A DNA stretch of 64,000 nt from Candidatus Thorarchaeota archaeon (GTDB lineage Archaea; Asgardarchaeota; Thorarchaeia; Thorarchaeales; Thorarchaeaceae), in contig JBHLRZ010000014.1 of the NCBI GenBank assembly GCA_048882045.1, positions 1-64,000 of the forward strand, given 5' to 3'. Within the stretch, counting starts at the first letter, position 1. Each line of letters starts with the position of its first letter. The position numbers and the translations under genes were made by a program. This document shows, one piece after another, positions 22,905 to 27,576 of the stretch. Below the pieces are notes generated by a model. That model did no database searches and had not been told where the DNA came from. It saw only the letters and a list, made by a program, of their open reading frames with translations.

Positions 22905-25223
22905 TTATCTTCGTAGGTAGAACCTTCGGTTCATCACATCGCCCAATAATGAGAGAACTCTACGATCGACAAGAGAAATGCTGTCCATCATTCTCAGAGC
23001 CCGTGTTACATTGGAGAAAACTGCATTGAGATAGGGTTGAGCATCTACCATTTCAGACTGCTCTACCATCTGGAGATAGGAGTTCGCAATCTTGATGAGT
23101 CCAAGCCAATCCTCTGCGAGAAGGAAATTGTATTGACTCTCGTCGAACGATGGCGGTGAACCTTGGAATCTGACACGGTCTATATACGCGGCATATTGGT
23201 TTTCAAGGGCGAAGGAAAACCGACGGAGTACTTGAGACAACATTGCGGAGGTGGCTTTAATGAACTCGGTAGACTCAACGAAATCAGTTTCTGTGGTTAC
23301 AACATCACCAAATGCAATAGCAGCACCATAGAATCCTGTTGCCAACTCTGAGTAATCCTTGTTGTCATAGAATGCCCGAAGAGTCTGAACCAAGTACGTC
23401 TGTCCAAGCCAGTATTGTGCAAGTAATGCATCCGTGTTGAGAACCCCGTCATCTACGGGAGGCTGAATGCGTCCTCCAACCTCTAGACTGAGTGCATCGA
23501 GATTTTTCTTTGACGTCGAGAGTGCTGCAAACAGACCTGCCACATTTGCAAGTGGAGAATCACTCTGGCTCATCCGTTTCGATCTTTCGAGTAATGATGA
23601 CCAAGATTTTGCTAGGTATGGAACGACAATGGATACTCCATGGATGAACATTGACTCCTGTTCAGCAACTGCGTCTTCCAACATGCGATCAACATCGTCC
23701 AGAAGACGTAACAATCGTAGAGGAATATCGCCTCCGTGTCGAGAGATTAACCAGACAACATCATAGGTCGCGATAGCCACTTCGATGAAAGCTCGAGGGT
23801 CTGTTGTAAACAAAGGCAGATACTGAACCAGGATTTCTCTCAACCCATCTCGAGAGTCTATGTCAGCACGTTCAGAAATCCTCATCTGTGATAGAGCGAG
23901 CCCCATCTCTGCCCCTAAGAGGGCTAGTTCCGAAATCCTTCCTTCGTCGAGGTGGTTTCTTCTCAATATAATTGCACGCTTGAAGGATTCAATACCAGTT
24001 GGCCAGAATTCATCACATTCGGTACTTAGACACAACCAGCCTATTGCAGTTTCAGTTTCAGCCATTTCAAGGTCAAAATCAGGATTTGTTTCTTCCAATT
24101 CAAGAAGTGTTGCCTTGGCATGGTTTAGGAGATCAAGTGATTTAGTCATATTCTCGTGATCGCCAAGAAGTCCGTATGCAAATCCTAGAGCTGTGAGGGC
24201 TCTGTAAACGTGGATATTTTGTTCAGGCGTTTTTTCATCGATACTGTTATAGATCCGGAGTCCTAATTCGAGTCTTTCGATGGCCTGAGGAACTCCTTCT
24301 CGCCATCCGTTAGCAAGAATGCTTGAGCCAATGATTACATGGGCCAGTCCAACCTCGTCCTTACTGACCAGACCAGCCTTGTGAGCAATGTCAAACAGCT
24401 CTGCAGCCTTATCTCCAGTCTTCCGCGCTTGTTCATGAGCAACAGTTTCATCACGAGTATTATTAACACCCAGCAGAAGGTTAACATGAGCTAGACTGAC
24501 TTGGTCAGCGTTCTTTCGTGCAACCTTTTCTAGCTCTTTCAAGATTGCGCGAGATTCATTGTAATAGGCCAATTCAGTGAGAACACTTGCATAGTCGAAA
24601 GACACTTCGAAGGAGAAATTATCCATCCTCATTTCTTTGCTTATCTCTCTTAGTCTGTTTAGAAGAAGTTCAGCACCTACATAGAAGCCGACCTCAATCA
24701 AAATCCAACTGAGGTTATGAACTTCATAGACTGCGAGATGAGATGTGCCAGCATGGCGTCTGTCATAGATTGCATTGAGGGTCATTAAGACCTCGTCGGC
24801 TAGGAATGGTAGAAGTGGACGAAGATTGAGACGAATAGCTGAACTCAAGGCTTGAGCAAGTTCCCCAAGAATGTCAATTAGATTGGGGATAGCAGCAATA
24901 TCTGGTTGAAGTTCACATTCAGCCCGTCGATGACTGCTAGTATATCTCGTGTCCAAGAGTAGTAACATCTCGGGTATTGTACGCTCTTGATGGAAGGACA
25001 AGCGTATTGCTAGTTCAGTGAGCTTAGCACTTGCTAGTCCCGGTCTTCTGAGAATGATCTCTTCTATAGACCTTGCAATGTCAAAGAGGATGTTCGATTC
25101 ATCAACATCGTTGAATGGAATATTCTGGACAGCTGAAAGTCCATCATCAAGAGACAGATTTGCGCAGAGAATGTCTCTCAATGTAACAATCAACTGTGCC
25201 TGCAAACGAGTATCTCCTCTCAT
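22905..25223 (-). CDS. Large all-helical (TPR-like) protein
   Basis: 772 aa, Leu/Ala/Glu-rich; TPR-like A...LG..Y...G repeats. Confidence 0.6.
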   Translation of the reverse strand: MRGDTRLQAQLIVTLRDILCANLSLDDGLSAVQNIPFNDVDESNILFDIARSIEEIILRRPGLASAKLTELAIRLSFHQERTIPEMLLLLDTRYTSSHRRAECELQPDIAAIPNLIDILGELAQALSSAIRLNLRPLLPFLADEVLMTLNAIYDRRHAGTSHLAVYEVHNLSWILIEVGFYVGAELLLNRLREISKEMRMDNFSFEVSFDYASVLTELAYYNESRAILKELEKVARKNADQVSLAHVNLLLGVNNTRDETVAHEQARKTGDKAAELFDIAHKAGLVSKDEVGLAHVIIGSSILANGWREGVPQAIERLELGLRIYNSIDEKTPEQNIHVYRALTALGFAYGLLGDHENMTKSLDLLNHAKATLLELEETNPDFDLEMAETETAIGWLCLSTECDEFWPTGIESFKRAIILRRNHLDEGRISELALLGAEMGLALSQMRISERADIDSRDGLREILVQYLPLFTTDPRAFIEVAIATYDVVWLISRHGGDIPLRLLRLLDDVDRMLEDAVAEQESMFIHGVSIVVPYLAKSWSSLLERSKRMSQSDSPLANVAGLFAALSTSKKNLDALSLEVGGRIQPPVDDGVLNTDALLAQYWLGQTYLVQTLRAFYDNKDYSELATGFYGAAIAFGDVVTTETDFVESTEFIKATSAMLSQVLRRFSFALENQYAAYIDRVRFQGSPPSFDESQYNFLLAEDWLGLIKIANSYLQMVEQSEMVDAQPYLNAVFSNVTRALRMMDSISLVDRRVLSLLGDVMNRRFYLRR

Positions 25224-25266
25224 CGAGAAGCAGGGTTTGGTGTTTTAAAACTTTCACAGAAAACTC

Positions 25267-25989
25267 CTATCGCTCAATTACAAAGTCATGCCATTCTCTA
25301 GAGGTGTCTGTACCTCTCATACGTTCCATTCTTATCTGGTGAATTGGTAGGTTTCCACGATCGTCAAGTCTGAAACGAAGTACAGCATCAGCAAGATAGG
25401 AAAATGTGGCATAGGTCTTTTCGTCATGAACACCCTCTTCCAGAACATACATGATGCTGTGGGAACTTTGAGTTATCCTTCCACTTAAACGCTGCACAGC
25501 CCTTGGCATTGTGACAGGATTGGAGTGTAGAATCAATGTGGAGAGACTGTCAATTACGACCCTAGCAACAACGAGATCCTCAAGAACTTCTGAAAGAACT
25601 ATGCCAAGCTCGCTTATGTCATCTACCTTTGCTAGTGAACGAGCACTGCTTGTCTTGGGAGCACCCATCCTCTCAGAATATCCATCGATAAAGATGAATT
25701 TCCCAGATGCTTCCTGTTCTTCGATTGTCCATCCATGACGACTCATATCATTCCTAATAACGCGAGGAGAAACATCTGTTGTGACAAAGACTGCTGGAAA
25801 TCCTAATGCGATTCCTTCAGCGAGGAATGCCTCAGCATAGGTTGATTTTCCACTACCAAGTGGTCCGACGAGTAAATAGGAAACTTGTGTAAGCTGACCA
25901 AACTTCACAAGGTCACTAATCATTGGACTAGCTCTGGCAGGCTGCAATTCCGCTGAGTCCAATTTTTCGGCCACCTTTTCGCCCCACAT
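25267..25989 (-). CDS. Single-domain KaiC/RAD55-family ATPase, partly degenerate
   Basis: GPLGSGKS, VVIDSLS, GVHDEKT, YLADAVL, ERMRG; catalytic EE replaced by TD/V. Confidence 0.85.
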   Translation of the reverse strand: MWGEKVAEKLDSAELQPARASPMISDLVKFGQLTQVSYLLVGPLGSGKSTYAEAFLAEGIALGFPAVFVTTDVSPRVIRNDMSRHGWTIEEQEASGKFIFIDGYSERMGAPKTSSARSLAKVDDISELGIVLSEVLEDLVVARVVIDSLSTLILHSNPVTMPRAVQRLSGRITQSSHSIMYVLEEGVHDEKTYATFSYLADAVLRFRLDDRGNLPIHQIRMERMRGTDTSREWHDFVIER

Positions 25990-25996
25990 TTCTTGT

Positions 25997-26743: not shown

Positions 26744-27069
26744 TTTGACACACCTTTCTTCTTTGTCTTAACTCCAGCACCAAGTACCATCTTCATCAGC
26801 ATGTCCGGTTCAGGGATACCGGTCACTGACACTCCACCAATCATAACAGTAGGCAGAGCGAATATGCCATACTCCTCTGCAGCCTCAGGATTCTCTGATA
26901 CGTTGACGATTCTAAGATGGAAACTAGATGAACCAAAGTCTTCTATCGTTTCTCGTACCACTTCTTCAGCACGCGGACAAAATGCACATGAGTCGGATTT
27001 GAACAAGACTACTTCAATGACATCATCATCCTTTTTTGATGACTTCCGACGCTTTTTCTTATCCGCCAA
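26740..27069 (-). CDS. Thioredoxin-fold protein (CAFC), KaiB-like C-terminal half
   Basis: SDSCAFCPRA; LRIVNVSENPEAAEEYGIFALPT; 4-nt overlap with the KaiC gene. Confidence 0.85.
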   Translation of the reverse strand: MADKKKRRKSSKKDDDVIEVVLFKSDSCAFCPRAEEVVRETIEDFGSSSFHLRIVNVSENPEAAEEYGIFALPTVMIGGVSVTGIPEPDMLMKMVLGAGVKTKKKGVSK

Positions 27070-27183
27070 ATGGTCGCACTCCTGGTTTGAGAAACGGCAT
27101 GGTTCAAAACGATGTTTGTCACTTGAATGTTTTGAGGGTATCGAGTTTCCGTAAAAATTGCAGTTTGTTATATCTAGATATTA

Positions 27184-27576
27184 TCAAGCTCGCATCAGGC
27201 GACGAATCATTGTAGCTGCCTTTCCGATGGGTCTGGAGTGATATCGTACACCTTTTGGCATCACAGCTGCTAGAATCAACGCTCCTGAACCCTTGCCAAT
27301 CTTTTTGAAAACAGCTTTGCCTTCTGTGCACCTCAGACTGATATCTCGAATCTCTCCAAGCATGAGTTCCTTCCTGACTCGTTCAGCTGAGTCAGCAATG
27401 AAACTAGACACTGCAGCTACCACATCCTTGTCAGTGCCTGATGAAACAGCAGAGGCAATTGAGAGACCATCATTTCTGACAAGGGAGGACAATGTGAATC
27501 CACCTTCCTTGTTCATACTCGAAAGGATTTTCGGAAGAGCGGTATAGTCAGGTCGTTGCATTGTGATGCGCTCCAT
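27184..27576 (-). CDS. Roadblock/LC7 (MglB-like) protein
   Basis: SSLVRNDGLSIAS..DVVAAVSS...LGEIRDISLRCTEGKAV. Confidence 0.85.
   Translation of the reverse strand: MERITMQRPDYTALPKILSSMNKEGGFTLSSLVRNDGLSIASAVSSGTDKDVVAAVSSFIADSAERVRKELMLGEIRDISLRCTEGKAVFKKIGKGSGALILAAVMPKGVRYHSRPIGKAATMIRRLMRA

Follow-up and report, generated by a model that had tools for sequence, protein, structure and literature searches.

Does a small thioredoxin gene that overlaps a gene of the KaiC family in a thorarchaeote encode a KaiB-like partner of that ATPase, and what might such a pair control? The question is raised by a 64,000-nucleotide (nt) stretch of DNA from a Candidatus Thorarchaeota archaeon (GenBank assembly GCA_048882045.1, contig JBHLRZ010000014.1, positions 1 to 64,000; hereafter the window), where five successive genes on the minus strand encode a Roadblock/LC7 protein, a CxxC thioredoxin (Trx), two proteins of the KaiC family (KaiC1 and KaiC2) and a protein of 772 amino acids (aa). 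A sequence-only reading had described this order, with a 4-nt overlap between the thioredoxin and the first KaiC gene and a 7-nt gap between the two KaiC genes, and had proposed from it a proto-KaiBC module in which a redox-active KaiB analogue works with two ATPases standing in for the CI and CII domains of KaiC. All five open reading frames (ORFs) and both spacings are present in the sequence (Table 1). Our analysis points instead to a conserved Asgard signalling module that is not a clock, an overall reading to which we give about an even chance; that the genes form one functional module we hold with good confidence.

Judging from its sequence, Trx is a genuine redox thioredoxin of the MJ0307 type and not KaiB. 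It has the active site CAFCP, is a member of the Pfam family PF13192 (Thioredoxin_3; 35.9 bits for a cut-off of 24.8) and scores 53.8 bits with TIGR00411, which is under the equivalog cut-off (92.75), so that it does not qualify as an MJ0307 equivalog. The previously noted likeness to small archaeal thioredoxins was borne out, the closest solved structures being 1FO5 (MJ0307; E value of 2.7e-12 over 77 aligned residues) and 1NHO (E 3.4e-09), and no KaiB was found among the 60 PDB matches listed. The CxxC motif is kept in 49/49 Thorarchaeota orthologues, and the alignment of these shows C28, C31 and the cis-proline, P73, to be invariant. An AlphaFold2 (AF2) model, with a predicted local distance difference test score (pLDDT) of 79 (≥90 in the core), has the canonical β-α-β-α-β-β-α order, and its top 50 Foldseek matches were thioredoxins and protein disulfide oxidoreductases. 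With the MJ0307 family (1FO5, 1NHO), its nearest sequence relatives, Trx shares the length class, the CxxC, the cis-proline and the fold; it differs by its CAFC site, in place of CPHC, by a charged, disordered N-terminal tail, and by the dedication of its gene to a KaiC gene. That gene has a TTG start codon, with GGAG 8–11 nt upstream, and its stop codon overlaps the start codon of kaiC1 in the sequence ATGA, as read directly on the DNA.

Near-length homologues of Trx were found only in Thorarchaeota, where they are annotated as members of the thioredoxin/glutaredoxin family, with nothing outside Asgard archaea, and single-protein scans with Trx-type queries added, besides the lineages named below, only two unlinked thioredoxins, bacterial or from Methanosarcinales. 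A search for longer proteins containing Trx (Rosetta-stone approach) scored none, which is weak evidence. Elsewhere in the genome there are canonical thioredoxins (80.5 and 66.1 bits), and also thioredoxin-reductase-like genes. The operon Trx is thus an extra, dedicated copy, and the idea that it is the housekeeping thioredoxin of this organism was discarded on these grounds.

In cyanobacteria, fold-switched KaiB docks on the B-loop of the CI domain of KaiC. The segment of Trx that had been likened to KaiB is indeed present and is short: in a comparison of profiles, Trx aligned with an Asgard true KaiB over 35 columns only (29% identity, probability 81%). The identification of Trx itself as KaiB failed, as its score with the KaiB model (PF07689), 26.5 bits for the protein by itself (26.1 bits in the genome scan), is under the cut-off of 27 and covers only positions 18–55 of the 82 positions of the model. 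Because the same model, in our scan of 151 Asgard genomes and of control genomes, also matched in M. jannaschii, Methanosarcina and Lactococcus, which are all devoid of KaiB, we take the near-threshold score as a cross-hit to small thioredoxins, and the KaiB-like segment as the β2-α2-β3 motif common to small proteins with a thioredoxin fold. The Trx model superposed well on fold-switched KaiB taken from complexes with CI (5JWR_D, Z 12.7, root-mean-square deviation of 1.8 Å over 82 residues; 5JWO_B, Z 12.5), and its predicted fold is compatible with KaiB-like docking, as that of any small thioredoxin would be. As regards the metamorphic fold that defines KaiB, Trx keeps its CxxC and is predicted in a plain thioredoxin fold in place of the β-α-β-β-α-α-β ground state of KaiB, a single predicted state that leaves room for fold switching.

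With the cyanobacterial KaiB-KaiC pair (5JWO, 5JWR), the locus shares, besides the superposable fold, a small thioredoxin-fold protein encoded just before a KaiC-family ATPase that is far closer to CI than to CII, with an insert where the B-loop would be. Unlike cyanobacterial KaiB, Trx has a redox CxxC with its cis-proline, a sub-cut-off KaiB score and no sign of the KaiB ground state; unlike cyanobacterial KaiC, KaiC1 is single-domain and without CII phosphosites, and there is no KaiA. One Asgard genome (G154; L156:2713-4437, minus strand) contains a canonical kaiB (83 aa, no cysteine) that is immediately followed by a two-domain kaiC (484 aa, 367.8 bits). With 61.5 bits for the protein and 60.7 bits in the genome scan, its product is the one clear KaiB that the scan of 151 Asgard genomes brought up.

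The motifs of KaiC1 mark it as a CI-like, catalytically intact ATPase of the KaiC family. Compared with the solved KaiC 8ZN5, it scored 184 bits with the CI domain and 75 bits with CII. In the alignment with the CI domains of solved KaiCs, we found the Walker A motif GKAGTGKS, the glutamate pair in LEEPP, and the arginine finger in KLRGS, in agreement with the intact EE and KLRG ascribed to this protein before, and also an insert of B-loop length (SPSKEITPVTIGEYPSF) at a place where CII has a deletion; the B-loop equivalent corresponds to residues ~97–113 of KaiC1. The scores with the two equivalog models for circadian KaiC were both under the cut-off (210.6 vs 408 for NF006799 and 167.5 vs 546 for TIGR02655). 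At the position equivalent to the phosphosite, KaiC1 reads EAFLA, and the absence of a cyanobacterial-type site noted earlier was confirmed, since there is no serine or threonine at the equivalent positions. KaiC1 is also the most conserved gene of the block across Thorarchaeota (79–97% identity). The other KaiC paralogues of this genome, on contigs C22 and C17, have no thioredoxin neighbour.

KaiC2 keeps a Walker A motif (GPLGSGKST) and the arginine of MRGT, and has D-V where PH0284 and KaiC have E-E, so that its description as lacking the glutamate pair was correct. With a KaiC fold and lost catalytic residues, it answers to the definition of an inactivated KaiC domain (iKaiC), a loss of activity that we infer from the sequence. 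Its best solved match was PH0284, and in every solved KaiC the best-matching stretch was the CI part and not CII. The motif EEGVHDEKT is common to KaiC2 and to relatives in Aenigmatarchaeota, Nanohaloarchaeota and Thaumarchaeota, which are also without EE and also stand beside a KaiC1-like gene, with no thioredoxin. In a quick maximum-likelihood tree of KaiC domains, KaiC2 grouped with the sequences of Aenigmatarchaeota and Nanohaloarchaeota. These affinities indicate that KaiC2 belongs to a widespread EE-less archaeal family, and they speak against a CII-like nature. In one metagenome-assembled genome (MAG) of Aenigmatarchaeota (L094:4376-6699, plus strand), the KaiC2-like gene with EEGVHDEKT is flanked by genes for two V4R-looking proteins that end in Cx..GDxxCEF.

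These findings bear on the proposal of a true proto-KaiBC timer, an hourglass or an oscillator, in which Trx would be the KaiB analogue, KaiC1 the counterpart of CI and KaiC2 that of CII. One half of the correspondence stood, as KaiC1 is CI-like and has an insert of B-loop length; the other found no support, as KaiC2 shows no affinity for CII. Forcing KaiC2 into a clade with CII of the Asgard true KaiC made the tree worse by 15.7 log-likelihood units (lnL) and was not rejected, with a p value of 0.23 in the approximately unbiased test (p-AU), which the timer can count in its favour. Because the deep branches of the KaiC-domain tree are open, the trees neither show nor exclude the CI/CII correspondence, and an active KaiC with an inactivated paralogue fits the data better than a split CI/CII pair. 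The timer also finds support in the fold of Trx, equal to that of fold-switched KaiB, in a gene order like that of kaiB-kaiC, and in the 41% identity over 58 residues to Asgard true KaiB of a cysteine-free protein that takes the place of Trx in Freyarchaeia (see below). Against it, KaiC2 is devoid of the EE pair on which the autokinase activity of CII depends, could be aligned in solved KaiCs with the CI part alone, and joins the EE-less sequences of DPANN and Thaumarchaeota; KaiC1 has EAFLA where a phosphorylatable residue would be expected; Trx falls under the KaiB cut-off; the canonical KaiB (61.5 bits) and two-domain KaiC of the other Asgard genome look quite different; and no KaiA or SasA/CikA-type parts were seen near the locus. 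We consider a timer extremely improbable and agree that a switch is more plausible than a true clock.

The linkage of the genes is strongly conserved. Trx, KaiC1 and KaiC2 are encoded in the same order in 48/48 of the Thorarchaeota loci that reach far enough, and Roadblock is present in every locus extending to it, while identity drops to 54% for Trx and to 43% for the 772-aa protein. In G025, a genome of the same order and of another (sister) family, the genes for Rab, Roadblock, Trx, KaiC1 and KaiC2 follow each other on one strand, with changed flanks; KaiC1 is 62% and Trx 48% identical to the window proteins. Two complete genomes of Atabeyarchaeia have a Trx gene (with CGFC), then a KaiC1-like gene, then one for a RagA/Gtr1-like GTPase. 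A Heimdallarchaeota MAG shows a cysteine-free Trx-like gene, a Trx gene (CAFCP), a KaiC1-like gene and a DUF7504 iKaiC gene with a GSGRT P-loop. In other Heimdallarchaeota, including AB_125, a two-domain KaiC gene is followed 11–15 nt further on by a gene for a CSWCP thioredoxin; this was seen in five genomes of three genera and again in 20/20 further Heimdallarchaeota loci.

A further variant was found in Candidatus Freyarchaeum and a relative, where a cysteine-free KaiB-like gene overlaps a KaiC1-like gene and is followed by genes for an iKaiC::GTPase fusion, Roadblock and another KaiC (DUF7504). The cysteine-free protein scores 27.9 bits with the KaiB model, above the cut-off, is related to the Asgard true KaiB as mentioned above, and aligns with the Thorarchaeota Trx profile over 76 columns. 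Lacking cysteines, the protein in this slot cannot work as a reductase, an argument for regarding the slot as that of a binding partner. The KaiC1-like proteins linked to thioredoxins in Atabeyarchaeia, Heimdallarchaeota and Freyarchaeia form one clade (support of 93 in the Shimodaira-Hasegawa-like approximate likelihood ratio test, SH-aLRT), and adding the Thorarchaeota KaiC1 to it gave a slightly better tree (lnL +3.8, p-AU 0.63).

Three further loci were observed in the course of this survey. In the Heimdallarchaeota genome G051 (L127:2870-7522, plus strand), the pair of two-domain KaiC and thioredoxin genes occurs twice, 3 kb apart, and the second KaiC matches from residue 154 on only. Another Asgard family (genome G056; L129:3111-4635, plus strand) has a Ras-like GTPase gene followed by those for a cysteine-free thioredoxin-like protein and a CGPC thioredoxin, with no KaiC before the contig end. 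In a further Asgard family (G079, joined on the basis of ORF length by G039, G061 and others; L115:3227-4729, minus strand), a 500-aa fusion protein combines a thioredoxin domain with V4R domains. Its gene has that of a TrmB-type regulator on one side and that of a GTPase of the Ras family on the other, perhaps a second case of thioredoxins associated with GTPases.

Could the thioredoxin be of a housekeeping type, adjacent to the KaiC genes without joint function, in a block of frozen gene order? The whole 10-kb block, comprising the genes for a HEAT-repeat protein, a WD40 protein, Rab, Roadblock, Trx, KaiC1, KaiC2, the 772-aa protein and an EF-2 paralogue, is syntenic in Thorarchaeota and includes genes unlikely to share one function; synteny inside Thorarchaeota is for this reason weak evidence when taken alone. 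The 4-nt stop/start overlap of trx with kaiC1 speaks against mere adjacency, as do the canonical thioredoxins encoded elsewhere in the genome, the persistence of the five-gene core in G025 while its flanks change, and the recurrence of thioredoxin-fold/KaiC pairs, differently ordered and flanked, in four more Asgard lineages. The synteny called for by the sequence-only reading thus exists, and the linkage of Trx with KaiC, far from being absent in relatives, is kept well beyond simple synteny. Adjacency without joint function appears very unlikely to us.

The candidate output of the module had been missed before. Divergently from the Roadblock gene, at a distance of 120 nt, lies the gene for a small GTPase orthologous to Thor-Rab, crystallised as 'Thorarchaeota Rab' (PDB 7EZB; residues 1–178 match at E 1.5e-96), and this gene is codirectional with the Roadblock-Trx-KaiC1-KaiC2 genes in G025. 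The best PDB matches of the Roadblock protein were the Asgard Robl_LC7 protein 7F8M (E 9.6e-05) and LAMTOR2, and it is likely to be a regulator of the adjoining GTPase. The arrangement resembles MglA/MglB-type pairs, and Thor-Rab itself (7EZB; PMC10933270), in that a Roadblock gene stands beside that of a Ras-superfamily GTPase; the Roadblock protein here is not the crystallised Thor-RB, as its match to 7F8M is no better than the E value given above. In the Thor-Rab paper (PMC10933270), the GTPases of MK-D1 are described as mostly outside operons with Roadblock genes, and neither KaiC nor thioredoxin is mentioned.

Further evidence for a connection with small GTPases was provided by gene fusions. 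The Freyarchaeial fusion proteins (387–390 aa; L155:5144-6307, plus strand, and L159:2144-3316, minus strand) consist of an inactivated KaiC domain, without the P-loop lysine, and a small GTPase. Their family comprises at least 620 clusters at E ≤ 1e-10, with named members in Freyarchaeia, Jordarchaeia, Lokiarchaeia, Thermoplasmata, Methanoperedens, Archaeoglobus, Woesearchaeota and Nanoarchaeota. Full-length fusions were located in 41 metagenome loci; a Roadblock gene adjoins in 27 of these, and one to three additional KaiC genes accompany the fusion in about 36. An active KaiC, an inactive KaiC, a small GTPase and a Roadblock protein are thus shared with our locus, where each part has a gene of its own, the GTPase is of the Rab type, and the list is extended by a thioredoxin and a TPR scaffold. 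That the fusion loci carry the same parts list is the strongest argument for the GTPase/Roadblock pair as the output of the module. This connection is the best-supported output, and we think it somewhat more likely than not that the output runs through this pair.

What, then, would Trx do? The idea that it reduces a disulfide in KaiC1 or KaiC2 was rejected, as neither has conserved cysteines: KaiC1 contains 0–2 cysteines per orthologue, none of them conserved, and the median for KaiC2 is 0. Trx is for the same reason unlikely to be a KaiC reductase. It might still be a dedicated disulfide reductase for Roadblock, for the 772-aa protein or for targets outside the operon, co-expressed with the KaiCs and devoid of KaiB-like binding. 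Roadblock has one cysteine in 41/44 orthologues, and the 772-aa protein has two cysteine columns, kept in 39/46 and 42/46 orthologues; the CxxC and cis-proline are intact in 49/49 orthologues, the nearest matches in sequence and fold are redox thioredoxins and protein disulfide oxidoreductases, and thioredoxin-reductase-like genes are present in the genome. Such a role leaves unexplained why Trx is coupled to KaiC1 in particular, and why thioredoxin-fold genes stand beside KaiC genes, in differing orders, in five Asgard lineages, and the slot is occupied in Freyarchaeia, and at one Heimdallarchaeota locus, by a cysteine-free protein, which points to a binding role. We regard a dedicated reductase as improbable, yet as an alternative that deserves consideration.

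A signalling module accounts for the arrangement as follows. KaiC1 would be an active, CI-like ATPase of the RecA type, presumably hexameric. KaiC2, presumably made together with it, probably still binds nucleotide in spite of the missing catalytic glutamate pair; if the iKaiC domains in the 'hubs' of archaeal KaiC are a guide, its role may be that of an adaptor or partner. Trx, whose gene is translationally coupled to kaiC1 and occupies the slot that kaiB has in kaiBC operons, would most likely serve as a redox-dependent partner or regulator of KaiC1, its own dithiol or disulfide state setting the binding. The signal would then pass on to Roadblock and Thor-Rab and the parts are probably held together, in Thorarchaeota, by a TPR scaffold specific to that lineage. 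The steps are not equally secure. Binding of Trx to KaiC1 falls just short of an even call, and docking at the B-loop in the manner of fold-switched KaiB is doubtful. The complete hypothesis, in which Trx is a redox-active counterpart of KaiB that docks on the KaiC1 B-loop in one redox state only, so that redox gates the path from KaiC1 and iKaiC to Roadblock and Thor-Rab, we consider unlikely as a whole.

Several observations weigh against such a module. The B-loop-like insert is not confined to KaiC1, as similar ones occur in the Trx-less KaiC paralogues of the same genome. True thioredoxins superpose on the Trx model at Z 12–13.4, tied with fold-switched KaiB, and the match to the latter thus reflects the fold in general and is no specific signal. 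A tree of thioredoxin-fold proteins, based on 90 columns and unresolved, with long-branch joins, did not unite the KaiC-linked ones; forcing them into one clade cost 24 lnL (p-AU 0.059), and thioredoxin-fold partners of KaiC may have been recruited more than once. In the window, the Roadblock and Trx genes are separated by 114 nt, and the Rab gene is on the strand opposite to that of the Trx and KaiC genes. Finally, tblastn detected neither a Trx gene nor a KaiB-like one in any of the 41 metagenome fusion loci, a negative that applies to the widespread fusion/Roadblock/KaiC loci outside Asgard archaea. The GTPase domains of the fusions resemble Arf and Ras and are not Rab orthologues, and in the tree an orthology of their iKaiC domain with KaiC2 could not be demonstrated.

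Archaeal KaiC-like ATPases have been proposed as major signalling hubs, and inactivated KaiC domains are an established concept. To our knowledge, almost none of these ATPases has a known input or output, and we know of no regulator or upstream signal for Thor-Rab. Work by Makarova, Galperin and Koonin in mBio in 2017 reportedly bears on archaeal KaiC/KaiB-like systems. The pairing of archaeal KaiC with a KaiB-like partner of the thioredoxin family was already noted in 2016 (PMC4858521), and our claim is for this reason a refinement and extension, not a new kind of system. The system described there shares with our locus a single-domain active KaiC and an inactivated paralogue in one operon, with a thioredoxin-family partner; the accessible texts do not mention the redox-active state of a CxxC, a TPR scaffold or the Rab-like GTPase and Roadblock neighbours of Thorarchaeota. 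Within the accessible literature, we found no account of a redox site retained in several Asgard lineages, of a graded series towards KaiB, or of a connection with Thor-Rab, Roadblock and the fusion family.

The comparative data give one KaiC module a candidate input, a redox thioredoxin in the slot of KaiB, and a candidate output, a Roadblock/small-GTPase switch backed by fusions across archaea. They also supply natural intermediates (CxxC thioredoxin, cysteine-free KaiB-like protein, true KaiB) for asking how KaiB arose from the thioredoxin fold. Were the redox-gated hypothesis true, the series from CxxC Trx in Thorarchaeota, Atabeyarchaeia and Heimdallarchaeota, through cysteine-free KaiB-like proteins in Freyarchaeia and Heimdallarchaeota, to true KaiB would trace the origin of KaiB from KaiC-bound thioredoxins, and redox sensing would be tied to small-GTPase signalling of a eukaryote-like kind in those archaea that are most closely related to eukaryotes. 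As all parts are small, soluble proteins, the hypothesis is directly testable in vitro.

The 772-aa protein, whose gene begins 43 nt after that of KaiC2, had been described as helical, and the AF2 model (pLDDT 89.6) is indeed an all-alpha solenoid of 34 helices. It gave no Pfam match at E ≤ 0.01 and no NCBIfam match. Foldseek related the model to Ctr9, Ski3 and the TPR domain of LGN/Pins (TMt of 0.65–0.72 for LGN), and a protein atlas placed it in TPR clusters at 0.94. In a profile search of 1.84 billion representatives, we recovered three full-length clusters at 50% identity, with fragments; the other matches were due to generic TPR similarity of multi-repeat proteins, at positions ~160–470. 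The gene is missing from G025. The predicted structure and this distribution indicate a TPR-like scaffold specific to Thorarchaeota.

Table 1. Genes of the thioredoxin/KaiC locus, with positions in the window
Feature	Position	Strand	Basis or remark
Rab-like small GTPase (Thor-Rab orthologue)	27697..28245	+	PF00071, 172.7 bits; divergent from Roadblock gene
Roadblock/LC7 protein	27184..27576	-	PF03259, 29.2 bits (cut-off 23), E 7.7e-07
Small CxxC thioredoxin (Trx), 109 aa, MJ0307 type by sequence	26740..27069	-	PF13192, 35.9 bits; TIGR00411, 53.8 bits
KaiC1, single-domain, 248 aa, CI-like by sequence	25997..26743	-	PF06745, 241.5 bits
KaiC2, degraded Glu pair, iKaiC-like	25267..25989	-	PF06745, 104.9 bits, and DUF7504
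772-aa protein, predicted TPR-like alpha-solenoid	22905..25223	-	no Pfam/NCBIfam match; AF2 model

Tail to tail with the gene of the 772-aa protein lies one for a divergent EF-2 paralogue (window 20801-22897, plus strand, TTG start), which scores 537.9 bits with TIGR00490 for a cut-off of 738.45 and whose synteny extends to every Thorarchaeota locus and to G025. On the other side, beyond the Thor-Rab gene, are those for a WD40 propeller (28249-29547, minus strand), a HEAT-repeat protein (29508-30743, plus strand) and a second Ras-family GTPase (30752-31348, minus strand), in an order that is kept across Thorarchaeota; window positions 28249-31348 thus form a dense patch of eukaryote-like signalling genes. 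It is followed by a gene for a 168-aa protein (31425-31931, minus strand) with a C-terminal CxxC zinc finger of the MJ0042 type (TIGR02098, 27 bits).

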